DNA of 64,000 bases from Bacillota bacterium (lineage in GTDB: Bacteria; Bacillota; Clostridia; TANB77; CAG-465), in contig JAEWRE010000083.1 of the NCBI GenBank assembly GCA_023460235.1, positions 70,565 to 134,564 of the forward strand. The letters are read 5' to 3'. Of the stretch, positions 48,272-64,000 are shown piece after piece. Within the stretch, counting starts at the first letter, position 1. The number at the start of each line of letters is the position of its first letter. The notes beneath the pieces were generated by a model. That model ran no database searches. It was not told the origin of the DNA and saw only the letters and a list, made by a program, of their open reading frames with translations. A program made the position numbers and the translations under genes.

Positions 48272-48318
48272 AAACGTGACAGTAGTGTAAAATTTAACAC
48301 TCTGCCACGTTTACTTTT
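48272..48318. terminator. imperfect hairpin terminator between convergent genes
   Basis: aaacgtgacagtagtgt ... acactctgccacgttt then ACTTTTTA. Confidence 0.4.
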
Positions 48319-49358
48319 TATATTATTTCTTTTTTCATTATCAATTGTATTTTCCCTTCGCTTTCTGCTATATTTAAATTTTTAATTGATAATATTATTT
48401 TCTTAATAAGATACATATCACTCTTATTTAATTCACTTACCTTTTCATTTATAATATCAAAATACCAATTACCTTCATCTTCGGTTAACATCAAATCTAC
48501 TTTTGAAGTTTGACCTGGAATTCCCATTATTCTAATTATTATTTCACAGATTATAAGTATAGTGTCATTTACACTTCCATTTAAATAGCTATTATCTTTT
48601 AGAGATATTTTGCTATTAAAAGGTACGTTTTTCATTTTCGATTCATTTTTTATTATTAATTCTATTACATCCATTATATCTCTATCTGTCATAATGTAAC
48701 TACTATTGTTTTGAGTTTGTCCTATAATTGAAGTTAAAACTTTATCTATTTTTTCTAAAGAATCTCTGTTTTTTGAATAAAAACCACTTAATTTTTCTAA
48801 ACTTTGTTTTTCAATTACATCTGTTGCAGTTTGTACTAACATATTTGTAACTTCAATTCCAGCACTTATTGCAAGTAAATTTGATTTTATTTCTTGAGCT
48901 ACTCCTGTAATTAAGCTTCCTATTGCAGTTGTTCTATATTTTGACATTTCAATCTCATTTTGTTGATTAAATATTTTAACTGCAGACATAAGTTCTAAAT
49001 TAAGTCTTGATATACCTTCTGTTTTGTCATAATAATTTTGTATATTTAATTTTTTCATCATATCTATAGGAGGCTTTTGACCAGAAAATCCAGTTTGTAA
49101 TATTATTATTAATTCTTGATTTGTTTTTCTTATCTCAGTTATAACTTCTTCTCCATTAAGACCAGGCATGAAATAATCAAGTAATGCTATTTGATATTTG
49201 TCAGTTCTCAACTCTGCAAGTGCAGCGTCTCCATCTGTAACTTTCTTTACATTATATCCTAATTGTTTTAAAAACTCATATGTCATTGTTAAATAATCTA
49301 AATCGTCGTCAGCCAGTAGTACACTAATATTTTTTACTAATTCATCAAATGTTACCAT
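48318..49358 (-). CDS. response-regulator receiver (REC) domain fused to a degenerate histidine-kinase-like domain (H-box His replaced by Gln)
   Basis: N-terminal REC (LLADDD, D at the LLDYFMPG region, K-containing GFSGQKP). Then GVAQEIKSNL where HisKA proteins have GVAHEIRNPL, and a C-terminal region with N/G-box-like GHKL features (NGSVND, IMGIPGQTS). Confidence 0.55.
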   Translation of the reverse strand: MVTFDELVKNISVLLADDDLDYLTMTYEFLKQLGYNVKKVTDGDAALAELRTDKYQIALLDYFMPGLNGEEVITEIRKTNQELIIILQTGFSGQKPPIDMMKKLNIQNYYDKTEGISRLNLELMSAVKIFNQQNEIEMSKYRTTAIGSLITGVAQEIKSNLLAISAGIEVTNMLVQTATDVIEKQSLEKLSGFYSKNRDSLEKIDKVLTSIIGQTQNNSSYIMTDRDIMDVIELIIKNESKMKNVPFNSKISLKDNSYLNGSVNDTILIICEIIIRIMGIPGQTSKVDLMLTEDEGNWYFDIINEKVSELNKSDMYLIKKIILSIKNLNIAESEGKIQLIMKKEII

Positions 49359-49475
49359 ATATAAATCTCCTTATTTATCTTTTTTATAATTATATAATAT
49401 ATTAAAAAAAAAGGAAAGAGTTTTAACTAAAAACTTTCCCTTTTAACATATTTATATCAAATTACCAGTATCTAA

Positions 49476-50294
49476 CTAAAAAATGAAAAACTTTACAAGT
49501 ATGATTATTGCAATTATTACTCTGTAGTATGCAAATAAAGCAAAGTCATTTTTCTTAATGTAATTTAATAAGAACTTAATACTTACTACTCCTACTATTG
49601 CTGAAACTACTACTCCAATAATTAAAGGAAGTATATCACTTGAACTTAATAATTCTGGAACTTTAGTTATTGCAGCACCAAATATTATTGGAACTGAAAG
49701 TAAAAAAGTAAATTTAGCAGCAGCCTCTCTTGAAACACCAACAAGACGTGCAGTTAAAATTGTTGTTCCAGATCTAGAAAAGCCCGGTATTACTGCAAAT
49801 GCTTGTGATATTCCTATAAGTAATGTTTGTTTTAATGTTAAATCTTCAAATTTTGTATCTTTATCTTTGTATTTTTTTTCTGCCCATTTATCTCCAAGAA
49901 AAATTAGTACACCCATGACTGCAAGTAGTAAGGCAATTATCCAAATATTATTTTGTGTTCCAAACATAGCATCAATTTTATCTTCAAATAGCTTTCCAAT
50001 AAGTGCTCCTGGTATTGTTGCTAAAACTAAATACCAAAACATTCTATTATTAAATGAATCTTTTTTATGAACTATCTTGTCAAAAGCACCCTTAAATAAA
50101 TTAAACCAGTCTCTCCAGAAAAATATTAAAACTGCAATTAAAGTTCCTACATGTAGAGCAACATCAAAAGCCATAGAATGTTCTGGCCAATTAAACAAGT
50201 AAGGTACTAATTTAAGATGTGCAGAACTAGAAATAGGCAAAAATTCACCTATACCTTGAACTATTCCTAATATTATTGATTGAAATATATCCAT
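49476..50294 (-). CDS. uppP: undecaprenyl-diphosphatase
   Basis: BacA/UppP signature GxxQGxxEFLPISSSAHL and PGxSRSGxTI. 8 TM helices. Confidence 0.9.
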   Translation of the reverse strand: MDIFQSIILGIVQGIGEFLPISSSAHLKLVPYLFNWPEHSMAFDVALHVGTLIAVLIFFWRDWFNLFKGAFDKIVHKKDSFNNRMFWYLVLATIPGALIGKLFEDKIDAMFGTQNNIWIIALLLAVMGVLIFLGDKWAEKKYKDKDTKFEDLTLKQTLLIGISQAFAVIPGFSRSGTTILTARLVGVSREAAAKFTFLLSVPIIFGAAITKVPELLSSSDILPLIIGVVVSAIVGVVSIKFLLNYIKKNDFALFAYYRVIIAIIILVKFFIF

Positions 50295-50306
50295 ATTTAT
50301 TTCCTC

Positions 50307-51326
50307 CTAATCAATTACTTTTGTTGATATTAATAGATTATCCGTTGTACGCAAATATATCTTATTGCCTTTTAAAGCTTCAAAACTAACATATTTTGAA
50401 AGTCTACCAATTCTTTTATATGGTTCACTTGAGGCAACATTTATTATATAATTGGGGTATATAAGATATACACCATAATTGTTATAATAGGTTTTTACTA
50501 AGTCTGTATCACTTAAATCTATTTTTTCAGTTATTTTGTTATTTTTTACTTTATAAACAGTATCTTTTTTATTTTTACTTAAAAAATACAAATTATCATC
50601 TTCATCGATACCGATCATTTCAACTTTTTCTTTGAAAATATTAAGACTACTACTTCCATAATAAACATTATAGTTTTCGTCTTCATAATATACCATATCC
50701 TTATGTTGTAACATTATCATTTTGTTATATACACTTCCAGATTTAATAAGTGAAATGTTGTTAAATAAATCTACTCTATATATAGAATTTTTTTCTGTAG
50801 TACCGTTTTTTGTTTGAACATTAAAATAAATTATATTGATTATTGGTGACATATTCATATCTTTTATAGCAACAAAATTATTAACGCTTATTTCATTATA
50901 TTTATTTTTTTGTTTGTTATCAATTTGATAAGTTTTTAAAACAATTTTTGATACATTTGTTGTTTTACTCTCTGTAAAATAAAGTATCATATTTTTATCA
51001 TATAGTAATTTAATATAGCATATATTTCCATCTTCTATTGTTGTAACATTTTTTCCATCGCTTATATTATTAATATATATTTTTGAATCCTTTAAATATA
51101 CATAGTATTTATTATTATGTGAATATTCAATGTTTTCTACATCATTTGGTAAAACAATTTTTGTTATTGATTTTATTTCTTCTTTACTCGCCGAAACCGG
51201 TGAATTACCTATAATACTAGTCTGACTAAGTTTATATATAAAATTATCTAAAATCGCAAGTGATGAAGTTGTAAGTATTGTACCAACGAAAAAAAACACC
51301 GCAATATACATGAAAAACTTTTTCAT
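50307..51326 (-). CDS. hypothetical exported protein (339 aa)
   Basis: N-terminal signal/anchor. Tyr/Asn-rich, beta-rich composition. Confidence 0.5.
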   Translation of the reverse strand: MKKFFMYIAVFFFVGTILTTSSLAILDNFIYKLSQTSIIGNSPVSASKEEIKSITKIVLPNDVENIEYSHNNKYYVYLKDSKIYINNISDGKNVTTIEDGNICYIKLLYDKNMILYFTESKTTNVSKIVLKTYQIDNKQKNKYNEISVNNFVAIKDMNMSPIINIIYFNVQTKNGTTEKNSIYRVDLFNNISLIKSGSVYNKMIMLQHKDMVYYEDENYNVYYGSSSLNIFKEKVEMIGIDEDDNLYFLSKNKKDTVYKVKNNKITEKIDLSDTDLVKTYYNNYGVYLIYPNYIINVASSEPYKRIGRLSKYVSFEALKGNKIYLRTTDNLLISTKVID

Positions 51327-51343
51327 TTTTCCCTCTCTTTCAA

Positions 51344-52297
51344 TTATTTAGTAATTATAAAAGCTGTTGGTACATATCTTTCTCCCATTATATCACTAGG
51401 ATTATTGATTAAATTACCATCATATATCATTGTGCTTGAAGCTCCACCATCTAAATTAAAAGCGTTATAAGCTCCATATTGTAAAAATATATCCTGTACA
51501 TTTTTTAAAGTAGCTCCGATACTACCTGCTTGTCTTCCATCTATAACAAGCATAAGTATTGTACCATCTTTTTTCTGACCAATAGCAGTTCTTGGTTGGA
51601 TTCCCCATCCTCCATCACCACTTTTTATAGTAGGATTTCCATTTAAAATTATAACTGGTCCAAAAGTTACTGCACTTACAAAATTTAACTCTTTCATTTT
51701 CGAATATGTCATAGAATTTGATACAATCATTCTATTTTTATTATCAAGTCCAACAATTTTATATGATCCACTTGTACTACCACTCTTCAACTGTCCATCT
51801 TGGATTATAATTCCACTTGCTTTTCCACCAGTACCTAATGCATCATCTTCAAATCCACCAGCATTTATTCCACCAATTGCATCATAATATTCTACAATTT
51901 GAGTTGTAGTTGAACCTACTTTGCCAAGCTTTGGTGCTGCAACTAATTTAACTCTAGATGGATCATTTACAATCAGTAAATAGCCTTTAAAGGTTTTAGA
52001 ACTTACATCTACTAGTTCTATTCCATCTTTATTCATATTACTTACTTGTATATCTTCAACTTGAGTATCATCTAAAGTTTCCTCTGGCCTACTATTTTTT
52101 AATATTTCTTGTATTTTTTCATCACTTAAAAACAAAGTTGCAAAATATTGATGTGACATTGTAGTCATAGCTGTTGTAACTATCATATCTCTTGTATTTG
52201 TAAATGGTCCATAGAAAATTAATGCAATAGCAAGTAATGGCATAAATATTATCTCAAACAGGAAAAATCCTGCAAATATCTTCAATTTCTTTTTCAT
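51344..52297 (-). CDS. phosphodiester glycosidase family protein (NAGPA/DUF2233-like), membrane-anchored
   Basis: GGINAGGF, TGGKASGIIIQDG and AFNLDGGASSTM motifs. Confidence 0.6.
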   Translation of the reverse strand: MKKKLKIFAGFFLFEIIFMPLLAIALIFYGPFTNTRDMIVTTAMTTMSHQYFATLFLSDEKIQEILKNSRPEETLDDTQVEDIQVSNMNKDGIELVDVSSKTFKGYLLIVNDPSRVKLVAAPKLGKVGSTTTQIVEYYDAIGGINAGGFEDDALGTGGKASGIIIQDGQLKSGSTSGSYKIVGLDNKNRMIVSNSMTYSKMKELNFVSAVTFGPVIILNGNPTIKSGDGGWGIQPRTAIGQKKDGTILMLVIDGRQAGSIGATLKNVQDIFLQYGAYNAFNLDGGASSTMIYDGNLINNPSDIMGERYVPTAFIITK

Positions 52298-52445
52298 CTT
52301 ATTACCTCATAAAAAACATCTATAATATTTTATCAAACTTCAACATTTTTTGCAACTTAATATTTAGATTTTGTTGTTATTTTATTATATTTTATAAAAA
52401 AAAGAATGTACCATAATATTGATACACTCTTTTAAAAATTAACTT

Positions 52446-54863
52446 TTATTGCGTTTTATTATTATTGTATATGTCAACACCACCGTTATTTCCATCATCA
52501 GGTTTTTCTGTTGAAGGCTTACTTGTATGTATATCACAAGTTTCTGTTGGTAACATATATTGCCAATCTGCAGGTTTAACTGTAGGTACACTATCTCTTG
52601 TAATAAATGATTTTTCAACAGTAGATGGACAATACTGAGTTGCTATTTTACCGCTTTCAGTACAAATTCTAACAGTTTTATGAATATCACAAGTAGCAGT
52701 TGGAACTTTTCCTACAGCAACCAAATCAGTTAATGTTTGATCACCTCTTGGATCATTCCTACAAGCATCTGTTGCAACTTTACCTGATATTCTACAAAGT
52801 GCTGCAGTAGTTACACTACTTGGTTGTTCGAATTTCTTATTTGGTAATCCTTTTACTATTGTACTCATTACACTATTAAATTTTGTAATACTTACATATG
52901 GATAAGGTTTTCCAATAACTTTTGGTTTATCATATCCTTCCCATCCTGCAATAGAATAATATGGTGTAAATCCAGCAAACCATCTATCTTTATCATCATT
53001 TGTATTACCAGTTTTACCAGCAACATCAATTCCAGGAGTTTTAATATATCCATAAGCTGTACCATTAGCACTTGAAATAACTGATTGTAGGCAACTTGTT
53101 AACATATATGCTGTTGAATCAGCCATAACTCTTTTTGCTTCTGTTTTTGTAGATAATACTTCATTTCCATCATTATCAACAACTTTTGTGTAAAGTTTAG
53201 GTTCAATATATATACCACCATTTGCAATTGTTGCATAGGCACTTGCAAGTTCAAGTGGTGTAACACCGTCAGTAAGTCCGCCAAGAGCTAATGATGCTGA
53301 GTTTTTATCAGCTTCAACTAAACTTTTAAGCCCAGCATTTTTTGCAAAATTAAATGCATAGTTTATATCTACTAATCTGTTTGCTCTTACAGCTGGTAAA
53401 TTCATAGATTTGTTGATTGCATTTCTTACAGTAACATATCCATTAAATCCATTATAATAATTCTTTGGTGACCAATTCCCTATAGTAAGAGGACTATCAT
53501 CTAAACCAGATCCTGGTGAAAGCAATCCTTGTTCCATTGCAGGTCCATATGCACCAAATGGTTTCATAGTAGAACCTGGTTGTCTTTTAACAAGTGCACG
53601 ATTAAGAACTCTAGCACCAGTTTTTTCACCTGCACCACCTGTAAGTCCAACTACGTTTCCTGTTGAATTTTCTATTACAACCATTGCTCCTTGGAAGTCA
53701 TTTGCAAAAGTTTTGCTATCGTTATATGCATCATCAATTGCTTTTTGAACACTTGAATCTTGTGTTGTATATATTTTTAATCCTCCAGTAAGAAGCATTT
53801 TAGTTGCAAGACCTTTATTTATACCTTTTGCTTCCATAAGGTCATCTAATACTTGTTCATAAATAGCATCTACAAAGTAAGTTTGAACTGAGCTATCTGC
53901 CTGTACTTCTTCTTTTTTAAATGCAACTTCATATTTTAAAGCCTCATCATATTGTTGTTGATCAATTTTTTTAAGTTTTAGCATTTGATTTAATACTATT
54001 TTTTGTCTGTCTAAAAGTTTTTTCTTAGCTTCTTCACTTTTATATGGATTTGTTGATTCAGGTGATTGTATCTTAGCAGCAATTATAGCTGCTTCTGCCA
54101 CATTTAAATCTTTTACAGATTTTCCAAAATAGTTTTCAGATGCAACTTCTATACCATATGCCCCATCACCAAAATAAATAGTGTTTACATAAGCTTCAAA
54201 TATTTTTTCTTTAGACATCATTTTTTCAATCATTAAAGCTCTATACCATTCTCTTATTTTTCTTTGCCAAGAACTTTCTTTATCATCTTTTATATTTTTT
54301 ACAAGCTGTTGTGTTATTGTACTTCCACCAAAGTTTGAATCACCACGATTAATAACATAAGTTACAATAGCTCCGAGTGTTCTTTTTATATCTATACCAT
54401 TATGTGAGAAAAATCTTTCATCTTCAATAGATACAATTGCATCTACAACTGGTTTAGGCAAATCTTCATAATTTACCATTACTCTGTTTTCAGAATCAAA
54501 GAATGCACCAATTTGATTTGAGTCTTTGTCATATATAAAGCTTGTTTCATTTTGTAGTTCAATATCAGATAAGGCTAAACTATCTGTTTTACCAACTATA
54601 CCAGATATTACACCTACTACCACACCTGCACCTATTATACACAACGCAATAAATACAAATAGACAAATTCTAAAGATTTTCCATCCAGTCTTTTTACCTT
54701 TTTTATTTTTTTTACCTTTTCCTTTTTCATCAAAGGTTTTATCTCCATTATTTACAATTGGTACAACTTTAGTTCCTTGATCATTGTCACTCTTTTGTTT
54801 CTTTTTCAGAGATTTAAATTTAAGTTTATTAAATTTTCCCTTTGTTCTTTTTTTATCTTCCAT
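52446..54863 (-). CDS. bifunctional class A penicillin-binding protein (GT51 transglycosylase + transpeptidase)
   Basis: GT51 motifs EDERFFSHNGID and GGSTITQQLVKN. TPase SxxK (STMKP), SxN, KTG. Cys-rich repeated C-terminal extension. Confidence 0.9.
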   Translation of the reverse strand: MEDKKRTKGKFNKLKFKSLKKKQKSDNDQGTKVVPIVNNGDKTFDEKGKGKKNKKGKKTGWKIFRICLFVFIALCIIGAGVVVGVISGIVGKTDSLALSDIELQNETSFIYDKDSNQIGAFFDSENRVMVNYEDLPKPVVDAIVSIEDERFFSHNGIDIKRTLGAIVTYVINRGDSNFGGSTITQQLVKNIKDDKESSWQRKIREWYRALMIEKMMSKEKIFEAYVNTIYFGDGAYGIEVASENYFGKSVKDLNVAEAAIIAAKIQSPESTNPYKSEEAKKKLLDRQKIVLNQMLKLKKIDQQQYDEALKYEVAFKKEEVQADSSVQTYFVDAIYEQVLDDLMEAKGINKGLATKMLLTGGLKIYTTQDSSVQKAIDDAYNDSKTFANDFQGAMVVIENSTGNVVGLTGGAGEKTGARVLNRALVKRQPGSTMKPFGAYGPAMEQGLLSPGSGLDDSPLTIGNWSPKNYYNGFNGYVTVRNAINKSMNLPAVRANRLVDINYAFNFAKNAGLKSLVEADKNSASLALGGLTDGVTPLELASAYATIANGGIYIEPKLYTKVVDNDGNEVLSTKTEAKRVMADSTAYMLTSCLQSVISSANGTAYGYIKTPGIDVAGKTGNTNDDKDRWFAGFTPYYSIAGWEGYDKPKVIGKPYPYVSITKFNSVMSTIVKGLPNKKFEQPSSVTTAALCRISGKVATDACRNDPRGDQTLTDLVAVGKVPTATCDIHKTVRICTESGKIATQYCPSTVEKSFITRDSVPTVKPADWQYMLPTETCDIHTSKPSTEKPDDGNNGGVDIYNNNKTQ

Positions 54864-54883
54864 TTCTTCACCTCTATAAAAAT

Positions 54884-55255
54884 TTACCAGTCAAAAAATA
54901 TGTCTTCAAATTTCATTCTTATGTTTAAACTAATTTTTAATGCTTGTTTTACTTGTTCCATTGTTAACGAATCAAGAGAACAAACTTTAGATTTAAGTCT
55001 TGATTTATCAAGAGTTCTTAGCTGTTCAGCAAGAATTATAGAATCTTTATCTAGTCCACACATATTACTTTTTAAAGGTATATGAGTTGGCAATTTATTT
55101 TTTACTTTACTAGTTATTGGTAAAACAATAACAGTAGGACTATGTTTGTTTCCAATATTATTTTGTACAATCAAAACTGGCCTTACCCCATCTTGCTCAC
55201 TTCCAACAACTGGACCTAAATCAGCAAAAAATATATCTCCTCTTTTAATTTCCAA
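54884..55255 (-). CDS. mazF: MazF/EndoA(PemK)-family mRNA interferase toxin; TTG start
   Basis: 123 aa, nearly collinear with Bacillus EndoA (GDIFFADLGPVVGSEQDGVRPVLIVQNNIGN...SPTVIVLPITSK...LPTHIPL). RBS AAGGTG 7 nt before the TTG. No antitoxin ORF fits in the 62-nt upstream gap. Confidence 0.8.
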   Translation of the reverse strand: MEIKRGDIFFADLGPVVGSEQDGVRPVLIVQNNIGNKHSPTVIVLPITSKVKNKLPTHIPLKSNMCGLDKDSIILAEQLRTLDKSRLKSKVCSLDSLTMEQVKQALKISLNIRMKFEDIFFDW

Positions 55256-55317
55256 ATTATATACACCTTACTTTCACTATTATACACTCAATTTATAAAA
55301 AAATCAAATACTATCTA

Positions 55318-56043
55318 CTAAAAAACTGTATTAATTTCAAAAGAATTATAACTTATATCTATATATACCTTATTATCACTGTTATATACAAACATTTCAG
55401 TTGGTTTTGAAGTATCTTTATTTATTAACAATTCAATAGCTGATATTTTAATTCCATCTTTAACTAAATCAGAATATTCTTTACATATATCACAATCATT
55501 ATTTCCAAAAATGATTTTATAGCTTATCTTTTGATCCTCATCAACATTTTCAATTTTACAGCAGTTATCAATATTACCATTTATTATCTTTTTATATATT
55601 CCAATAAAAGTAGAAATACTCATTATATTTTCTTTTTTTACAATATAATCACTTAAATAAAATTCATTTTTTTGACTTTCATTTTTAATTTTAACTTGAT
55701 TATTTTCAATTAAATATGAAATTTTTTCATTATTTGCAGATAAGGTTTCAAACTTAAATCTTTCAGTATTATTTTTTTCATTTTTTGAATACCATTCTTT
55801 CATTTGATAATTATTAGTATTTTTGTTACTTTGTATTGTAATAGAATAATCAGCAAAGTATGATGTTATATCCATTATTGAATCTTTATTTAATACATTA
55901 CCTAAATTAAATCCATTTGAATCTTTATTTACTATATAAAATGTAGTAGCAATGAGTATGCAAGCAATCGTTATAGCAGTAATTATTATCATTATTATCT
56001 TTTTTTCTTTTAAAAAACCTAAATTTATACTTGTTATAAACAT
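55318..56043 (-). CDS. hypothetical membrane-anchored protein (241 aa)
   Basis: N-terminal TM helix, Asn/Lys-rich exported domain with CC..CDIC cysteines. Confidence 0.5.
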   Translation of the reverse strand: MFITSINLGFLKEKKIIMIIITAITIACILIATTFYIVNKDSNGFNLGNVLNKDSIMDITSYFADYSITIQSNKNTNNYQMKEWYSKNEKNNTERFKFETLSANNEKISYLIENNQVKIKNESQKNEFYLSDYIVKKENIMSISTFIGIYKKIINGNIDNCCKIENVDEDQKISYKIIFGNNDCDICKEYSDLVKDGIKISAIELLINKDTSKPTEMFVYNSDNKVYIDISYNSFEINTVF

Positions 56044-56103
56044 AAAAACTCCCCTATTAATATCATAATTAATTATATGATACTAATAGAGGAGTATGAT
56101 TTA

Positions 56104-57729
56104 TTATTTTATATATTTGCTTGATTTTATATCAGAAAGAGAATTCTTTAATTCATTTAATTTTTCTCTTATTTGTGCTAAATCATTTTCATCACCAGTA
56201 TGCTTTAATTCTGATTTAACACTATTTGTCATTTTATCCACATCTTCTTTTAAGAATGAAAGTAATTCAAGTATATCAAATCTAGTAGATTGATATGTAG
56301 ACTTAGTAGATCCGATAAGTTCTCCTTTTTCATTATATGATTCTTTATAGTCAGGTATAGTTGAAGAAATATTAAATTTATCAAAAATATATCCTTTTAA
56401 TGCTTGTTGAGCAGAATATTCGCCATGAACTATAAAAATATGTTTTGGTTTTGTAGTCATTTTATCTATCCAATTAAGAAGTCCATCTCTATCAGCATGA
56501 CCAGAAAATGCATCTAAATATCTTATTTCAGCATTAACAGCAATCTCTTCTCCAAATATTTTTACTATTTTTTCGCCTGATAATATTTTCTTACCAAGTG
56601 TTCCTTCAGCTTGGAATCCAACAAATAAAACTGTACATTCAGGTCTATACAAATTATGCTTTAAATGATGCTTTATTCTTCCAACTTCACACATTCCACT
56701 TGCTGAGATTATAATCTTAGGTGTTCTATCTTCATTTAATGCTTTTGACTCTTCAGCAGTACTTACAAAATGCAAATTATCAAATTCAAGAGGATTATCA
56801 CCTTTTAGTAAATACCTTAATGCATCATCATCATAATATTCAGGATTATCAATAAAAATATTAGTTGCATTTACGGCTAGAGGACTATCCACATAAACAG
56901 GTATTTTTTTAATTTTTTCTCCAACACCTTTCATAGCTGCATATCTATTAATTTCATATAATAATTCTTGAGTTCTTCCTACAGCAAAAGAAGGTATTAT
57001 TATATTTCCGCCTCTTTCTACAGTATCAAGTAAAATTTGAATAAAAGTATCACTTTGATCTTCAATATTTCCGTGAAGTCTATCTCCATATGTTGATTCC
57101 ATTACTAAATAATCAGCACCTTCAATAAATGTAGGGTCCTTAATTATTGGCATATCAGTATTACCAAGATCACCAGAAAATACTAATTTTTTTTCTTCGC
57201 CATCTTCTTTTAAATCAACTTCAACTATTGCAGATCCAAGCATATGTCCAGCATCAATTAATCTAAATGATAAATCATCACTGATTTTTATTTCATCTTC
57301 ATAATTTACACCTTCAAAAAGTTTCATTGAATCCAAACCATCTTGAGCTGTATACATTGGCTCTGTTTCTTTCTTTCCAGCTCTTTTTCTTTTTTTGTTT
57401 ATCCATTCTATTTCTTTTTCTTGTATATGTCCACTATCTGCAAGCATTATTTTACAAAGATCTACTGTAGCAGTAGTAGTATATATCTTACCAGTATATC
57501 CAGCCTTATATAACTTTGGTATTCTACCACTATGATCAATATGTGCATGAGTTAGTATTACAAAATCAATTTCATTTATATTAAACGGAAAATCTTCATA
57601 ATTTTGCATTTGATCAGTAAGTCTTCCTTGAAACATTCCACAATCAACTAGAAATTTTTTACCACAAGCTTCTACCATATGACATGAACCAGTTACTGTT
57701 CTTGCTGCACCATAAAAAGTTATTTTCAT
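56104..57729 (-). CDS. beta-CASP family metallo-beta-lactamase-fold ribonuclease (RNase J-like / CPSF-like)
   Basis: MBL HxHxDH motif (THAHIDHSG) and beta-CASP/RMMBL segments. Start set at MKITFYGAAR (ATG 57729) 8 nt after AAGGAGAT. The ORF table extends to 57786. Confidence 0.75.
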   Translation of the reverse strand: MKITFYGAARTVTGSCHMVEACGKKFLVDCGMFQGRLTDQMQNYEDFPFNINEIDFVILTHAHIDHSGRIPKLYKAGYTGKIYTTTATVDLCKIMLADSGHIQEKEIEWINKKRKRAGKKETEPMYTAQDGLDSMKLFEGVNYEDEIKISDDLSFRLIDAGHMLGSAIVEVDLKEDGEEKKLVFSGDLGNTDMPIIKDPTFIEGADYLVMESTYGDRLHGNIEDQSDTFIQILLDTVERGGNIIIPSFAVGRTQELLYEINRYAAMKGVGEKIKKIPVYVDSPLAVNATNIFIDNPEYYDDDALRYLLKGDNPLEFDNLHFVSTAEESKALNEDRTPKIIISASGMCEVGRIKHHLKHNLYRPECTVLFVGFQAEGTLGKKILSGEKIVKIFGEEIAVNAEIRYLDAFSGHADRDGLLNWIDKMTTKPKHIFIVHGEYSAQQALKGYIFDKFNISSTIPDYKESYNEKGELIGSTKSTYQSTRFDILELLSFLKEDVDKMTNSVKSELKHTGDENDLAQIREKLNELKNSLSDIKSSKYIK

Positions 57730-57850
57730 ATTATCTATCTCCTTACTATCTTTAGTATGCACATATTTTATACCAAATAAAAACAATTTTCAATATATTT
57801 TTTAAAATTATATTTCAAACATAAACCTTTCTATTTTAGATTTATATTGA

Positions 57851-57887
57851 ATTTTTAAAAATGGAATGAGTTTTAATTCATTCCATT
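57851..57887 (-). terminator. rho-independent terminator after the large surface-protein gene
   Basis: aatggaatga / tcattccatt 10-bp stem then UUUUUAAAAA on the minus strand. Confidence 0.55.
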
Positions 57888-57922
57888 TTTATAGTTATAT
57901 ATTTTTATTTTTTATATTCTTT

Positions 57923-60900
57923 TTACAAAGCAGCTGAAACTACCAAAACAGGACGGAATCCATAACTACCATCAGCATTACCAGTTCCACCAGGGTAACA
58001 GTCAAAAGCAAACAAGCCTGCTGTAGCTGAACCATAGCAATAGTCTCCACGTCCAAAAAATGGTCCATAAACAATTTCACTTGAATTTGGCATAAAAGAT
58101 TGATCTCCATACCATGAGGAATTAATCTTTATAGTATTGGCATCAATTTTAAGACCTCCATTTGCTGATGTTTCATAAACTGCATCACCTTTTTTACTTG
58201 AATTTGCTGAATAGTTTGCTACATAATCATCAGTTGCACCTTTAGTATATATATCTTTATACTGTGCTGCTGAATTTACTAAGCTTGAACCATATGTTGT
58301 TAAATCACTACTTCCATTATTAACATAAGCTGCTGTGTATTCATCTGCACCACCACTCATGTCATATACTCCATACATGTTTCCTGTAGTACTAGCATTT
58401 ACTCCATAAGTAACATTATTATATGCATATGTATCTGCTGTACCACTTGCACTTACGCTAGTTCCAGCTTGACCAGTTATAAAACTTTTATTTGGGTTTA
58501 TCCAAACTTCACTATTTTTACCATAAATACTATTTGATAAATAAGCTGCTGCTCCCCATTCAATATTTTTCATAAGATGAGTATCAAATCCTGAACCACT
58601 TGTTCCCCATCCATATTTGCTATTTGTTTCCATATTTCTACATGCTGTAAACATTGCATCTATTTTTAAACTTCTTAATGATACTACATTTGGTTTTACA
58701 TCTACTGCTGTTGTTGTTCCACTCGCTTCAAATTTTGCTACCCATATTCCAGTAAGTTGTGTACTTCCAAATGTAAATGCAGTATGCATTGTATATCCAC
58801 TTGTAGTTGATGTACCTGTGCCACTTACAAAATTTACTGCTATTGTTTGAGCTGTTGATGTGTGTGGAGTTGGTATTTTGTACTCATATCTTGGTATCCA
58901 TACCCACATTGAACCATCTGCTGTTTGTGCATTTGCCCAATGTTTATTTGAATAATTGTACCAAGAAGAATCAGAGCTTGTAGTAGCTACAATATTTCCA
59001 TTTACATCCCATTTTATTGGAGTCATTCCTGGTGCTAACACAGGCGCATTAGCATTTGAAGTATCAGGTGTATCATTTATTTGGAAAACTACAGATTTTG
59101 TAATTGTAGCATTACCCAGATTATCATTTACTTTTATCCATAAATAATAATTACCTAGATTGGTATTTGTCAGAGTAGATCCACTTGTAAATGTGTTCCA
59201 ACCACTACTTGGAGTTGTACTGTTTTGTGTATCCCATACATATTGTAATGTACTTGTATTTACCCCACTTCCAGAATCATTAACAGTTACTATTGTGCTA
59301 GCTTGAGATGTAACTGTGCCACCATTTGTTCCAAATGCAACTGTAGGACTTGTTTTATCTATATTTACTACATATCCTGCACTCTCTGCTCCATTTGTAC
59401 CTACATTATTTACTGCTCTTGCTTTTATATATGTTGTTCCTTCTGTTGATACTACTATTTTATTTGTACTGTTGTATGTTTGCCATGCTCCATCATTTAT
59501 ATTGTACTCATATCTTGCTATTCCAGTTGATGTTACTTCATTTACTGTTAATGTTACATTGCTATTTGTCCATGTATTACTTGTTATTGTTCCTGTTATT
59601 ACTGGTGCTACTGGTATATCAGTATTTGTTGTCACACCACTTGACAATACTTCTCTTCTATTTCCTGCATTATCTACTAATAATACATGTAAATAATATA
59701 CTTCATTAGTACTTGATGTTACTGTTATTGTTTGTGTAGCACTTGTAAATACTTCTGCTGTGTTCCATATTTCTTCTGTATCTCCATATGGAGTTGATAC
59801 AGTTGAATATATATATTTACAGTTATTTAAATCCAGCCCACTTCCATTTGTATTGTCACTCATTGTTACTGTTGCTTGTACACTACTTGTTGTTGTAGTG
59901 CCTGGTATTGTTATATTTGCTTCATTTGGAACTGTTGTGTCTACTATTATTTTACCTGATGTTGATGATTTTTTGTTATTTGCTGAATCTACTGCAAGTA
60001 CATGTAAATAATATTCTCCATCTGTTGGTACTTCTAATGCCAGTGTAGCAACATTTCCAACATAGTCTGTTGCACTAAATGCTGTTGCTGTATTCCATGC
60101 AACATCTGTTTCTGTATAATTTGTTGATATTTTATCTATTATGTACTTACTTCCTGTTTTATTTATTCCACTTCCACCATCATTATCGCTTAATGTCACC
60201 GCTATAGGTGTTATAATTAAATTATTTGAGTAGTTTGACATTGATATTTGTGCTGCATTTGGTACCACTGAATCTACTGTTGATACTACTTTTATTTCTT
60301 TTTGCCTTACATCTGCCAAATTATCCATCTTCACTTCTACTTTTATATAATAAGTTTTATTTGCTTCTATTCCTTCTGTTATACTGTAACTTACCGTTGA
60401 ACTTTTTTCTTTTATCTCTTTTATATATGTTTCTGGATAACTTCCACTTGTATCTGATATATATATTCTATAGTAATCTATTTTACTTACATCTACAAAT
60501 GCTCCTGTTAGATTTACTGTTAAGTCTAAACTTGCTTCAGTTGGTACTACAGTTGCATCAATTTTAAAGTCTTTTGATTCTATTACTCCATCACACCATG
60601 ATGATTCTTTTTGGCTATCTCCAACATATACTAGTTCACCAGATATTACTTCCAATTTATCTGGATAATTAGTATTTTCCATTGATGTTATAATATCATC
60701 AATTTTTATTTCTTCATTTTTTTGCTTTGCACCATTTTCATATGAACCTGATTTATCTGCATTTAACAATTTCGCATCATAATTTCCATTAGTGTTTGAC
60801 ATTTTCCCTAACTCATATAATGACAAGTCACTTTTAAATGTGTCTACATCATTTAAAAACTTTGCTTTTTTAGCTGAATCAATTGGATTATTTTTACTCA

Positions 60901-60985
60901 AATTAAGTATTACTGCTCCAGCTAATATTATTATAACGATTATTGTTATAATTAATACTATTAATGAAATACCTTTCTTTTTCAC
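57923..60985 (-). CDS. large membrane-anchored surface protein: N-terminal signal-anchor, roughly 6 Ig-like repeats, C-terminal FGE-sulfatase/C-type-lectin-like domain
   Basis: 1020 aa, GTG start 6 nt after AGGAGG. N-terminus KKGISLIVLIITIIVIIILAGAVI. Repeats each contain SDNDGGSG/SDNTNGSG/NDSGSGV-type turns. The C-terminal roughly 300 aa align to the FGE-domain motif order (WVWIPRYEY ... IWVAKFEAS ... NIEWGAAAYLS ... GVYDMSGGADEYT ... FGRGDYCYGS ... YGFRPVL). Confidence 0.7.
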   Translation of the reverse strand: MKKKGISLIVLIITIIVIIILAGAVILNLSKNNPIDSAKKAKFLNDVDTFKSDLSLYELGKMSNTNGNYDAKLLNADKSGSYENGAKQKNEEIKIDDIITSMENTNYPDKLEVISGELVYVGDSQKESSWCDGVIESKDFKIDATVVPTEASLDLTVNLTGAFVDVSKIDYYRIYISDTSGSYPETYIKEIKEKSSTVSYSITEGIEANKTYYIKVEVKMDNLADVRQKEIKVVSTVDSVVPNAAQISMSNYSNNLIITPIAVTLSDNDGGSGINKTGSKYIIDKISTNYTETDVAWNTATAFSATDYVGNVATLALEVPTDGEYYLHVLAVDSANNKKSSTSGKIIVDTTVPNEANITIPGTTTTSSVQATVTMSDNTNGSGLDLNNCKYIYSTVSTPYGDTEEIWNTAEVFTSATQTITVTSSTNEVYYLHVLLVDNAGNRREVLSSGVTTNTDIPVAPVITGTITSNTWTNSNVTLTVNEVTSTGIARYEYNINDGAWQTYNSTNKIVVSTEGTTYIKARAVNNVGTNGAESAGYVVNIDKTSPTVAFGTNGGTVTSQASTIVTVNDSGSGVNTSTLQYVWDTQNSTTPSSGWNTFTSGSTLTNTNLGNYYLWIKVNDNLGNATITKSVVFQINDTPDTSNANAPVLAPGMTPIKWDVNGNIVATTSSDSSWYNYSNKHWANAQTADGSMWVWIPRYEYKIPTPHTSTAQTIAVNFVSGTGTSTTSGYTMHTAFTFGSTQLTGIWVAKFEASGTTTAVDVKPNVVSLRSLKIDAMFTACRNMETNSKYGWGTSGSGFDTHLMKNIEWGAAAYLSNSIYGKNSEVWINPNKSFITGQAGTSVSASGTADTYAYNNVTYGVNASTTGNMYGVYDMSGGADEYTAAYVNNGSSDLTTYGSSLVNSAAQYKDIYTKGATDDYVANYSANSSKKGDAVYETSANGGLKIDANTIKINSSWYGDQSFMPNSSEIVYGPFFGRGDYCYGSATAGLFAFDCYPGGTGNADGSYGFRPVLVVSAAL

Positions 60986-61017
60986 TTTAAGCCTCCTAGG
61001 TTAAAAATTACACAATA

Positions 61018-61046
61018 AGTATACATCCAAATTTTAGATAATTCAA
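61018..61046 (-). promoter_or_regulatory. putative promoter of the 57923..60985 gene (TTGAAT -17- TATACT, minus strand)
   Basis: Seen in the reverse complement, about 25 nt upstream of the RBS. Confidence 0.35.
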
Positions 61047-61149
61047 CTTTTTTTATTTGTGTAATATAAATGTTATTGATATGAAATATATGTGAAATAT
61101 GCAAAAATAGTAAGCAATTTAAAAATCACTTACTCTTTTTTATTTATTT

Positions 61150-61400
61150 TTATAAATAATCTTTAACCATCAGGGTAGCTCAAAATCCACAAGAAATTGA
61201 TCCAGTTGAACTCCTACATCATTAGATGAAAAACTAAAAATCCCATATGAAATACCAGTTGAATATATGCATCATGTATTATAAAGATCTCATATTCATC
61301 ATAAAGCCTTTAACGGATTTGTATAATACCATGATGAAAAATAATTAGATGTCATTTAATATAATGCATCAACCATTTTTAGAAGTGTTAGCACTGTAAT
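61150..61400. repeat. degenerate approximately 50-bp tandem repeats / pseudo-coding remnant in the spacer between the paralogs
   Basis: Units resemble GAAAT(TGAT/A)CCAGTTGAA(CTCCTA/TATATG)CATCAT...(A/T)GATGAAAAA(C/T)TAA. Both strands give short repeat-like peptide fragments interrupted by stops. Confidence 0.3.
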
Positions 61401-61462
61401 TATCTGTTGAAGTATGATTTGCATTCACATTATATACATATTTACTTTTACTGATATAAACT

Positions 61463-61510
61463 TATTTTTTTGTATTGAGAAAACGGAAGTAATCTTAAAA
61501 TTACTTCCGC
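61463..61510 (-). terminator. terminator after the upstream paralog
   Basis: aacggaagtaat / attacttccgc stem followed by UUUUCUC...AAAAAAA on the minus strand. Confidence 0.5.
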
Positions 61511-61540
61511 TTATACTAACTTTAATTAATTTTAAATCTT

Positions 61541-64000
61541 TTACTTGATATAAAGTACTACACGAAAACTAAGACTTGTTTCCATCCACGAAGATGTATC
61601 ATCATATGAACGATATGCTGTTGAAATATAACTACCACCAAAAGCATAACTACCACTACGATTAATATGAGCAACAGGTGAAATATTAAATAATTCATTA
61701 GTATGTTCTGATGCATTACCAGCTAAATCATATATATTTTTTGCCTTCCAATATTCACTATATCCTGATATTTGTAATGATTTATATCCTGATACATTTG
61801 CTGGTGCTGTTGAATCTTGATGATTACCCCAAGTTCTTGTATCTATTACACTTTTTCCAGAATTTTGTATCCATTTTAATGCTGTATCCCACTGTGTTCC
61901 TGTTACCATGTTTGTTCCCACATAAGTACTATTATATCCATAATTGCTTGCCATACTTTCTGATTGTGCTTTTGCTTCTTCATATTTTATATAATTCCAT
62001 AAATATCCATTATATGTTGCATTTCTTGTTGTTGACCAATTCGTTGTTGTTACATTTGTACTTTTTTTAACTGCTACACGTGTATTCCCTCCATTATAGT
62101 CAAATGCTGCCTCATATCTTCCTATATAAAAACCTTTATATTTACTTGCCATAGTATATTCATTATATCCACTTGGCAATGTATCATCCGCTAGTCTTGA
62201 ATCATTATATCCTATAAATTCAGTACACCATTTTGCATATGGTACATCGCTTCCATCTACTGGAACCCATACAAATTGGTTTCCATATGAATCTTGTATT
62301 ACCAAACCATTATTCCATCCTTGTGGTATTCCATTAGACAAATTCCAACTTGCATCAGTTGTGTTAACTGGACTGAATCCTGCTGGTATTACCGGATTAT
62401 TGTATGTTGGTGTTTTACCATTTATAGTTGTATTTTCATTTTTTGGTGTTCCCGGATTACCTTCTGTACCAGGTGTATTTGAAGTTGGATATTCTGCTAA
62501 TGTTATTGAAACTGTACTTGATGTTCCAACATTTCCTGCAATATCCGATACTCTTACTTTACAATTATATGTTCCTGAACTTACATTACTAAATGTATAG
62601 CTTGTTGCACTTGTTGCTGCAGTCCATGTTATACCATCATCTTTTGAATATTGATAACTTGATGCATTTATTCCGCTTCCTCCAACATCACTTGCTGATG
62701 CATTAACTATTAAATTAGTTCCTGAACTTCCACCATTTGAAGCTATGACACTTGGATTTGTTTTATCTATTCTAACTATATATCCTGTACTTTCTGCTCC
62801 GTTGACGGAAACATTATTTACAGCTCTTGCTTTTATGTATGATATTTGTTCTGTTGTTATTATTATTTTATTTGTGCTGTTATATGTTTGCCATGCTCCA
62901 TCATTTATATTATATTCATATCTTACAATTCCAGGAGAAGCTACTGTATTTACTGTTAATGTTACGTTGCCATTTGTCCAGGCATTACTTGTTACTGTTC
63001 CTGTTACCACTGGTGCTATTGGGGTATCTGTATTAGTTGTTACTCCACTAGATAACACTTCTCTTCTATTTCCAGCTTTATCTACTAATAAAACGTGTAA
63101 ATAATATATTTCATTTGTGCTTGATGTTAATGTTATTGTTTGTGTAGCACTTGTAAATACTGTAGCATTATTCCATATTGCTTCTGTATCTCCATATGGA
63201 GTTGAAGCAGTAGAATATATATATTTGCAATTAATTAAATCTAATCCACTTCCATTTATATTATCGCTCATTGCTACTGTTGCTTGTACGTTATTAGTAG
63301 CTGTACTGCTTGGAATTGTTATTGTTGGTTCACTTGGTGCTGTGGTATCTAATATTATTTTACTTGATGTCGCTGTTACTTTATTTGAGGAATTATCTAC
63401 AGATAATACATGTATATAATATTCTCCATCTGCTGAAACATCCATTGACATAGTTGCTACATTTCCTATAAAATTATCTGCTGTAAAATTTGTTGCAACA
63501 GTTCCCCAGATGTTATCTGTTTCACTATAATTGCTTGATGTATTATCTACTACATATTTACTTCCTGTTTTATTTATTCCACTTCCTCCATCATTATCTG
63601 TTAAAGTTATTGCTACTGGTGTTATAGTTAATGACTTAGAATAATTTGGTACTGATATTTGTGGTGCATTTGGTTTAACTGCATCTGCAACTGAAACCAC
63701 TTTTATTTCTTTTGTTCTCACATCTACTTCATTACTCATTTTCAAATCTACTATTATGTAGTAAGTTTGATTTGGTACTACACCTTCTGTTATATTAAAA
63801 TCTACTTTAGCACTTTGAGATGTTGTCTCAAAAGATGGTTGTGCTGGTCTTTCTCCACTTGCTGTTGCTAAGTAAATTTTGTAATAAGAAATTTTTCCTA
63901 TGTCTACTAATGTCCCACTTAATGAAACTGTTCCACTAATATGAGTAGTGTCAGGGACAGCAGATATATCTATTTTAAAATCTTTAGATTCTATTACTCC
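61541..64000 (-). CDS. large surface protein paralog (5' end beyond window): Ig-like repeat stalk + divergent C-terminal FGE-sulfatase/C-type-lectin-like domain
   Basis: The frame stays open to position 64000. The upstream translation GVIESKDFKIDISAVPDTTHISGTVSLSGTLVDIGKISYYKIYLA...YYIIVDLKMSNEVDVRTKEIKVVS matches residues about 135-230 of the downstream paralog. The ORF-table start at 63745 is an internal TTG. Confidence 0.7.
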   Translation of the reverse strand, partial: GVIESKDFKIDISAVPDTTHISGTVSLSGTLVDIGKISYYKIYLATASGERPAQPSFETTSQSAKVDFNITEGVVPNQTYYIIVDLKMSNEVDVRTKEIKVVSVADAVKPNAPQISVPNYSKSLTITPVAITLTDNDGGSGINKTGSKYVVDNTSSNYSETDNIWGTVATNFTADNFIGNVATMSMDVSADGEYYIHVLSVDNSSNKVTATSSKIILDTTAPSEPTITIPSSTATNNVQATVAMSDNINGSGLDLINCKYIYSTASTPYGDTEAIWNNATVFTSATQTITLTSSTNEIYYLHVLLVDKAGNRREVLSSGVTTNTDTPIAPVVTGTVTSNAWTNGNVTLTVNTVASPGIVRYEYNINDGAWQTYNSTNKIIITTEQISYIKARAVNNVSVNGAESTGYIVRIDKTNPSVIASNGGSSGTNLIVNASASDVGGSGINASSYQYSKDDGITWTAATSATSYTFSNVSSGTYNCKVRVSDIAGNVGTSSTVSITLAEYPTSNTPGTEGNPGTPKNENTTINGKTPTYNNPVIPAGFSPVNTTDASWNLSNGIPQGWNNGLVIQDSYGNQFVWVPVDGSDVPYAKWCTEFIGYNDSRLADDTLPSGYNEYTMASKYKGFYIGRYEAAFDYNGGNTRVAVKKSTNVTTTNWSTTRNATYNGYLWNYIKYEEAKAQSESMASNYGYNSTYVGTNMVTGTQWDTALKWIQNSGKSVIDTRTWGNHQDSTAPANVSGYKSLQISGYSEYWKAKNIYDLAGNASEHTNELFNISPVAHINRSGSYAFGGSYISTAYRSYDDTSSWMETSLSFRVVLYIK

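Follow-up and report, generated by a model that had tools for sequence, protein, structure and literature searches.

Two tandem genes in a Clostridia bacterium are predicted to encode pilin-like proteins with different C-type-lectin-fold heads on an immunoglobulin-like stalk

The 64-kb stretch of DNA analysed here (the window, from contig JAEWRE010000083.1 of a Bacillota bacterium of the class Clostridia) has a G+C content of ~27% and ends in two adjacent large genes, gene 1 and gene 2, that lie on the minus strand as do all genes around them. A preliminary description of this DNA had interpreted the two gene products as paralogous surface proteins with a common membrane anchor, a conserved stalk and exchanged C-terminal heads. 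We suggest that the genes probably encode modular pilin-like, cell-surface ligand-binding (adhesin-like) proteins that have been diversified by duplication and module exchange and that belong to a very large and little-studied family of uncultured Clostridia and Bacilli. The features of the two genes are listed below with coordinates in the window; coordinates preceded by a locus designation refer to that locus.

57923-60985, minus strand: gene 1, 1020 amino acids, made up of a pilin-like module, a five-domain stalk and head 1.
60590-60985, minus strand: gene 1 residues 1-132, degenerate type IV pilin-like module starting with MKKKG followed by ISLIVLIITIIVIIILAGAVIL, with Val at +5.
59066-60589, minus strand: stalk of gene 1 (residues 133-640) with five beta-sandwich domains, from profile matches.
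57926-59065, minus strand: gene 1 residues 641-1020, head 1, predicted C-type-lectin/formylglycine-generating-enzyme (FGE) fold similar to that of TaqVP, a variable protein of a diversity-generating retroelement (DGR).
57926-58072, minus strand: C-terminal ~49 residues of head 1, which correspond to the variable region of DGR targets and presumably form the ligand-binding surface.
61541 to beyond 64000, minus strand: gene 2, frame open for 819 codons to the window end.
62486-64000, minus strand: stalk domains of gene 2 inside the window, which ends before the part that encodes the N-terminal 132 residues.
61544-62413, minus strand: head 2, the last 290 residues of gene 2, predicted FGE/C-type-lectin fold of a second subfamily.

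The two adjacent minus-strand reading frames are as initially described. Gene 1 starts with GTG, eight bases 3' of an AGGAGG ribosome-binding site (60992-60997) in the spacer between the genes. Gene 2 is complete on the source contig, where it encodes 951 amino acids (L043 6590-9445; L043 is a locus from ENA ERZ28599292 scaffold_56, 143.9 kb, that reaches ~10 kb beyond the window). Upstream of gene 2 lie two further paralogs of ~500 amino acids each (L043 3184-6374), which combine an N-terminus of the gene 1 type with a head-1-type domain and have no Ig-like stalk, and upstream of these lies priA. In total, four paralogs lie in tandem between priA and the RNase J gene, so that gene 1 and gene 2 represent half of an array that extends past the window and hence beyond the view of the earlier work. 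The second of the short paralogs is frameshifted ~20-25 codons before its annotated stop (L043 ~6300-6380), within its equivalent of the variable region. Its alternative frame ends in SGYYGGGGATYGFRPVLLVDSTL directly before the stop codon, which is the ending expected for the family, and this paralog would be either a pseudogene or the product of an assembly error at a GGTGGTGGTGG run.

The stalk consists of five beta-sandwich domains of ~90-110 amino acids each with D-x-x-x-P linkers between them. The fourth domain is of the OmpL47/CHB_HEX_C type, the OmpL47-type model NF047446 matching gene 1 with E 1.8e-10 (41.2 bits, cutoff 40), and Big_13 matches the stalk of gene 2 with E 3.5e-6 (27.9 bits, cutoff 27). 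The remaining Ig-family Pfam matches are sub-threshold, and in gene 1 those to Big_13 and Big_3_2 are weak. These matches agree with the original reading of the stalk as a row of Ig-like repeats. In a codon-aware alignment of the two genes, numbered by the residues of gene 1, protein identity is 83% in the N-terminal module (residues 1-132) and 52, 62, 83, 75 and 25% in stalk domains 1 to 5, respectively. Over the common stalk (residues 133-548), the identity is 67.5% for protein and 75.5% for DNA. Stalk identities of 75-80% for protein and 85-90% for DNA, as first reported, apply to the central stalk only, including the segment that had been cited as an example (59461-59700 versus 62861-63110), which is 85% identical in protein and 86% in DNA. 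The identity falls to 25% after domain 4, with a breakpoint near residue 548, and the fifth stalk domain was, therefore, exchanged along with the head. The heads, which align poorly, are ~31% identical, and BLASTP found no similarity between the two proteins past gene 1 residue 764, as expected from the claim that the heads are almost unrelated in sequence. Synonymous divergence between gene 1 and gene 2 is uneven: the proportion of synonymous differences (pS) is 0.63 for the N-terminal module and 0.32-0.40 for stalk domains 3-4, which suggests a mosaic history in which the central stalk underwent exchange at a later time. The copies are diverged throughout and, thus, are not an assembly duplication, an outcome that the preliminary description had named as one that would overturn it; moreover, an exact copy of the gene 1 protein is found on three public contigs, one of them the scaffold from which L043 was taken.

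The main clue to the mode of display of the two proteins is the N-terminal module. In gene 1, this module consists of a short basic leader, an invariant Gly, a 22-residue hydrophobic helix and a small globular part, and its first residues follow the FTLIEL pattern of prepilins with Ile in place of Phe1 and Val in place of Glu5 (ISLIVL compared to the canonical FTLIEL). With a leader that ends in Gly and is followed by a hydrophobic helix of ~20 residues, the N-terminus has the layout of a class III signal. Distant homologs of head 1 have a canonical KGFTLIEL N-terminus with PF07963 (N_methyl), and an hhalign comparison of 109 GISLIV-type with 46 canonical N-terminal modules of the head-1 family gave a probability of 96.7% with E 3e-10 over 72 columns. 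A mixed family profile, in which the members with canonical prepilin N-termini are included, matches solved type IV pilins in its N-terminal part (PilE1 with E 2.6e-8, and also geopilin), the GISLIV-rich profile alone reaching geopilin at E 0.16 only. The match of gene 1 to TIGR01710 (GspG) is weak (E 0.046). As judged by these profile comparisons, the "membrane anchor" of the preliminary description is a pilin-derived module. That it is common to both proteins is borne out on the source contig; in gene 2 it lies outside the window, and its relation to pilins had been missed.

The module is widespread. Searching 1.84 billion cluster representatives with residues 1-135 yielded 1998 proteins at E<=1e-3, and in all 150 of the matches listed the module is N-terminal, with protein lengths from 82 to 1294 amino acids. 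Among the relatives are stand-alone module proteins of 134-172 amino acids, which is the size of ordinary pilins, some of them possibly gene fragments. Across 75 relatives, whose identity to the first sequence is otherwise 21-65% and mostly ~30%, Gly occupies -1 without exception (75/75) and ISLI-L is nearly invariant. The domains to which the module is fused in these relatives include BspA-type leucine-rich repeats (LRR), LRR_8, GBS Bsp-like repeats, ALK/LTK glycine-rich domains and RCC1 propellers as well as ConA-like lectin, cadherin-like, discoidin, CBM_4_9, dockerin, Ig-like and FGE-sulfatase domains. In one related locus (L045 4784-7106), two genes of 374 and 389 amino acids with ALK/LTK glycine-rich domains adjoin a relative of head 1; the same domain is elsewhere fused to the GISLIV-type pilin module. 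A pilin-derived carrier found in ~2000 protein clusters, therefore, presents many kinds of binding domains in bacteria that have never been cultured.

Several observations weigh against a pilin-like function of the module: (i) Phe+1 and Glu+5 are both substituted, so that processing by a prepilin peptidase would be putative, and Val rather than Glu occupies +5 not only in gene 1 but across the GISLIV subclass, (ii) PF07963 does not match gene 1 at E<=1, (iii) motifs of the ATPase, the platform protein and the prepilin peptidase of type 4 filaments were found neither in the window nor, in a crude regular-expression scan, in ~776 kb of related loci, (iv) the neighbours of the relatives are housekeeping genes, with no pilus machinery beside any of the 46 sequences examined, and (v) there are dozens of paralogs per genome, far above the usual number of minor pilins. 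The same observations would be explained if gene 1 and gene 2 encoded simple type II membrane-anchored proteins, in which the helix is an uncleaved signal anchor, no filament is formed and the Ig-like stalk suffices to bring the head across the wall; a five-domain stalk of ~20 nm also fits the crossing of a Gram-positive wall. We regard this alternative as quite possible. However, a signal anchor would require neither of two features of the relatives, which are otherwise mostly ~30% identical to the first sequence: a Gly that never varies behind the basic leader and a 20-residue helix that hardly does. Nor does it account for the stand-alone proteins of pilin size, even if some of these are fragments, and the stalk that would have to span the wall is missing from most family members. 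The type II anchor is a sub-alternative within the interpretation of the proteins as modular pilin-like surface binders, and the two differ in the mode of display only.

For the C-terminal heads, a length of ~300 amino acids had been given, which suits head 2 with its 290 residues and is too short for head 1, which has ~380. Searches of solved structures with the single sequences gave nothing useful, and profiles were needed. The FGE-sulfatase profile PF03781, which had been named as a check, matches head 1 below threshold (17.5 bits, cutoff 23.3, E 0.0034) and does not match head 2, but many members of the head families pass. The head 1 family has >6500 homologs, typically of 500-600 amino acids, and the head 2 family ~2800, typically of ~430 amino acids, many of which carry PF03781 and are named "SUMF1/EgtB/PvdO family nonheme iron enzyme". 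The profile of the head 2 family matches SUMF2 (E 1.3e-4), and the two family profiles match each other with a probability of 99.9% in an alignment that takes in the first half of the heads, a score to which the common N-terminal module contributes. The order of FGE/C-type-lectin motifs that had been recognized by eye is found in both heads: the pairs WVWIP/FVWVPV, EWGAAA/TQWDTAL and YDMSGG/YDLAGN fall in aligned profile columns, and the C-terminal pair GFRPV/SFRVV is present in heads 1 and 2, respectively. AlphaFold2 models built from the family alignments have a predicted local distance difference test score (pLDDT) of 94.1 for head 1 and 96.3 for head 2. In Foldseek searches of the PDB, the best match of head 1 is TaqVP (E 5.7e-10), followed by Mtd, FGE and TvpA, and head 2 matches CarF, CalU17, TvpA, OvoA, TaqVP, PorK, PvdO and EgtB. 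Judging from these models, both heads have the FGE-sulfatase/C-type-lectin fold, and in this respect the initial assignment was correct.

The fold is shared by enzymes and by binding proteins. Catalysis by FGE requires a copper-binding CxxxxC cysteine pair near the C-terminus (Cys336/Cys341 in the human protein). No CxxxxC is present in the last 90 residues of any of 87 head-1 and 96 head-2 family sequences, both window heads included, and the C-terminal region of these 183 aligned sequences has no conserved Cys column. Because of the missing pair, the heads are best read as binding domains, and it is very unlikely that they are surface-tethered enzymes of the FGE/EgtB/PvdO superfamily, e.g. 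sulfatase-maturing or sulfoxide-synthase-like, as might be proposed from the annotation of family members, from their PF03781 domains and from the structural matches to FGE, EgtB, OvoA and PvdO. Two further points argue against enzymes: the best structural matches are to non-enzymatic variable proteins, and the catalytic iron site of EgtB sits in its DinB domain, which the window proteins would lack. Thousands of database entries named "SUMF1/EgtB/PvdO family nonheme iron enzyme" are, therefore, probably non-enzymatic surface binders. The most variable stretch of the head-1 family alignment is formed by the last ~40 residues (entropy 2.36 bits), and in TaqVP, TvpA and Mtd the variable ligand-binding region is located at this position (PMC6328139).

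The preliminary description had linked this fold to the targets of DGRs. At the level of the family the link holds. A scan of 44 sequences for repeats with adenine bias, combined with the reverse transcriptase motif GIPIG..SQ...YMDD, identified two clear cassettes, L024 and L040, both in metagenome-assembled genomes (MAGs) of uncultured Clostridia. In L024 (194-5239), the target is a protein of 568 amino acids with a pilin-like N-terminus and a head of the head-1 type that is ~30% identical to gene 1; the last 149 nt of the target gene are repeated 200 nt downstream, each of the 14 mismatches lies where the downstream copy has an adenine, and the repeat is followed by genes for bAvd (E 3.6e-20) and a reverse transcriptase (RVT_1 with E 3e-17, GIPIGNYTSQ...YMDD). 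The cassette in L040 (34-2932) is similar, with target, template repeat, bAvd and reverse transcriptase, and a second possible DGR target lies at L040 4839-6527. These two cassettes indicate that the family includes true DGR targets, the variable region of which maps to the C-terminal segment of gene 1. At the locus itself, the link does not hold: neither an adenine-biased repeat pair nor the DGR-type reverse transcriptase motif was found in the window or in the 10 kb beyond it on L043, and a self-BLAST of 57801-64000 against the window matched the two stalks with each other and gave no second copy of the 3' end of either head. The last 150 nt of the head-1-type genes (57926-58075 and the L043 paralogs) have a G+C content of 0.38-0.43 compared to 0.31-0.33 for the whole genes; for gene 1 the values are 0.43 and 0.32, and for the L024 target 0.56 and 0.35. 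This rise could reflect a sequence rich in Gly, Ala, Pro and Arg or be the trace of a former variable region.

The MAG Bacillota bacterium OH_CBB_1, from a related species, encodes a gene 1 ortholog of 1020 amino acids that is 90% identical with differences that are evenly spread, and the last 60 residues are 92% identical, i.e. there is no hypervariable tip. By a Nei-Gojobori-type method, the ratio of nonsynonymous to synonymous divergence (dN/dS) between the orthologs is 0.19 for the whole gene and 0.09 for its last 60 residues, and it is below 1 in every segment of the orthologs and of the alignable regions of paralogs; comparisons of head with head are saturated and uninformative. The proposal that the genes are under diversifying selection is not supported by these values, which show purifying selection on gene 1 between orthologs, at least as far as estimated from this sequence pair, with the C-terminal binding region included. 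They also bear on the possibility that gene 1 and gene 2 are active DGR targets whose C-terminal region is hypermutated by a reverse transcriptase and a template repeat located elsewhere in the genome. TaqVP as the closest structure to head 1, the true DGR targets among relatives at ~30% identity and the G+C-rich 3' end of gene 1 are in line with this scenario, but a variable-region equivalent that is this well conserved between orthologs 10% apart overall is not, nor is the lack of repeats of the head 3' ends, of adenine-biased repeat pairs and of the reverse transcriptase motif in the sequences scanned, and we consider it highly improbable.

The same ortholog bears on a possible movement of gene 1. 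Gene 1 is 90% identical in DNA between the window and OH_CBB_1 (57921-61212 versus L001 9700-13002) with a pS of 0.23, whereas eight syntenic housekeeping genes (48316-57797 versus L009) are ~77% identical with a pS of 0.47-0.64. Moreover, the OH_CBB_1 ortholog is a single gene between uvrA, tRNA-methyltransferase and CAAX-protease genes and a hydrolase gene, and the syntenic site beside the RNase J gene of OH_CBB_1 is occupied by a different head-1 gene, which is cut by the contig end. The lower pS of gene 1 together with the different locus of its ortholog suggests recent lateral transfer or relocation; alternatively, the OH_CBB_1 contig may have been mis-binned. In a further MAG, STCSWMC_228 (L004 1347-14000), a tandem array of five genes that share this N-terminal motif lies behind a homolog of priA. 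Thus, the priA-linked position of the array seems to be conserved with a content that differs between genomes.

The C-type-lectin fold is also used by phage receptor-binding proteins such as Mtd, and the pilin module has a weak match to a PHROG family of unknown function (E 1.5e-4). Nevertheless, an origin of the genes as prophage- or phage-derived receptor-binding (tail fibre) genes is extremely unlikely: tblastn of head 1 against 50,697 phage records gave no match, the N-terminus is a membrane or pilin helix and not a tail-attachment domain, and the neighbours are priA, the RNase J gene and similar genes. The other large genes of the window that were scanned are likewise chromosomal, coding for trigger factor, BipA, PNPase, tRNA synthetases, PBP1 and ABC transporters.

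Combining the architecture of the two proteins with the predicted folds and the comparison of orthologs, we infer surface display, ligand binding and the mode of anchoring as follows. The N-terminal helix would insert into the membrane and, lacking Glu5, the protein would either sit as a cap at the tip of a type 4 filament or remain anchored in the membrane. The stalk, which would measure ~20 nm if each domain contributes ~4 nm, would hold the head beyond the cell wall, and the head would bind its ligand via the C-terminal strands that correspond to the variable binding surface of DGR variable proteins. In this genome, the repertoire would be generated by tandem duplication and module exchange, i.e. 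four genes with a swap of heads after stalk domain 4, and not by a DGR. In relation to the preliminary description, the architecture and the fold were correct, the identity figures were optimistic and the anchor was under-interpreted, so that overall it is partly supported.

Modular pilins with grafted adhesion modules are established in the monoderm Streptococcus sanguinis, in which PilB carries a vWA and PilC a ConA-like lectin module (Raynaud et al. 2021, PMC8179133). As in PilB and PilC, an N-terminal pilin module is here combined with a grafted binding module, and the carrier module of the gene 1 family is in relatives fused to ConA-like lectin, LRR, discoidin and other domains. In contrast to PilB and PilC, the class III signal has degenerated (ISLIV without Glu5 and without a PF07963 match), a five-domain Ig-like stalk is inserted, the C-type-lectin/FGE fold is not among the 15 most frequent architectures in the main text of PMC8179133, and dozens of paralogs are scattered among housekeeping genes rather than placed in a pil operon, incorporation into a pilus being putative in this case. 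In type 4 filaments, the tip complex has as its cap a subunit without Glu5, e.g. GspK, and a position exclusively at the tip is expected for such subunits (Pelicic 2023, PMC10191384). Similarly to GspK and other capping pilins without Glu5, gene 1 and gene 2 encode large pilin-like subunits without this residue; however, the extra domain of GspK is an insertion of unclear function and its gene lies within the machinery operon, whereas the modules described here are C-terminal binding modules encoded by dispersed genes.

Among the proteins with which the heads share their fold, TaqVP of Thermus aquaticus (PDB 5VF4; PMC6328139) was crystallised as a chain of 381 residues that corresponds to the head alone, to which gene 1 adds the pilin module and the stalk; unlike TaqVP, gene 1 is accompanied by no template repeat, reverse transcriptase or hypervariation between orthologs. 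The fold of both heads is also that of TvpA of Treponema denticola and of Mtd of a Bordetella phage. TvpA, a lipoprotein of the cell surface, is one of several paralogous targets within a single genome (PMC5758913), a situation comparable to the multigene family described here. The anchoring differs, being a lipoprotein or a phage tail fibre in these systems and a pilin-like helix in gene 1 and gene 2, as does the source of diversity, which is here paralogs and module exchange. Related in concept are the type V pili of Bacteroides with adhesive tips diversified by DGRs (bioRxiv 10.1101/2024.11.15.621889), in which variable binding heads are likewise displayed on pilus-related carriers in gut anaerobes; as with these tips, some relatives of gene 1 (L024, L040) are DGR targets, but the carrier is type IV-like, the phylum is different and there is no DGR at the locus.

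The modular surface proteins proposed here connect modular type IV pilins with the C-type-lectin scaffold of DGR variable proteins, two subjects that are not linked in the literature searched; no published description of a combination of pilin module with FGE fold or DGR was found, most subscription journals being outside the scope of the search. They also place two routes to diversity on one scaffold, i.e. paralog expansion with module swapping in this genome and DGR hypermutation in relatives. Most potential lies in the possibility that the Glu5-less carrier module is the sign of a separate display system, the tip adhesins of which would be interchangeable. Tentatively, and with considerable doubt, we propose that the GISLIV-type module may define an undescribed display system of uncultured Clostridia and Bacilli in which each genome encodes dozens of interchangeable "cap" subunits that differ in their binding heads, among them C-type-lectin/FGE, LRR, lectin, discoidin and RCC1 domains, and that compete for the tip of a single type 4 filament or form an anchoring structure of their own, and in which the repertoire is renewed by module exchange, interspecies lateral transfer and, in some lineages, DGR hypermutation. 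If so, these bacteria would possess a combinatorial adhesin library on a pilin chassis.

Two further features lie between gene 2 and gene 1.

60986-61540, minus strand: intergenic spacer of 555 nt, which holds the gene 1 ribosome-binding site and a promoter-like site.
61481-61512, minus strand: hairpin just 3' of the gene 2 stop, a 32-nt inverted self-match.

The promoter-like site (61046-61018) is putative and a consensus match only. The hairpin is possibly a terminator, although it was missed by a consensus terminator scan. It is also the sole inverted repeat of the region, and invertible or shufflon-like elements were accordingly rejected. A decayed remnant of head 1 in the spacer (61360-61400, minus strand) was likewise considered and dismissed: the translation DNYSANTSKNG resembles ANYSANSSKKGD of gene 1, but the DNA alignment scores 27 compared to 26.6 +/- 3.3 for shuffles. 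Elsewhere in the window, two open reading frames of 1869 and 687 amino acids with a 29-nt overlap (2265-9909, minus strand) contain glucoamylase-like, GH94 supersandwich and GH94 catalytic domains and look like a giant gene of the cyclic beta-1,2-glucan synthase type split by a frameshift or, alternatively, like two genes. Finally, a gene for a PemK/MazF-type toxin (54884-55255, minus strand) lies between the PBP1 gene and a YdcC-like gene.

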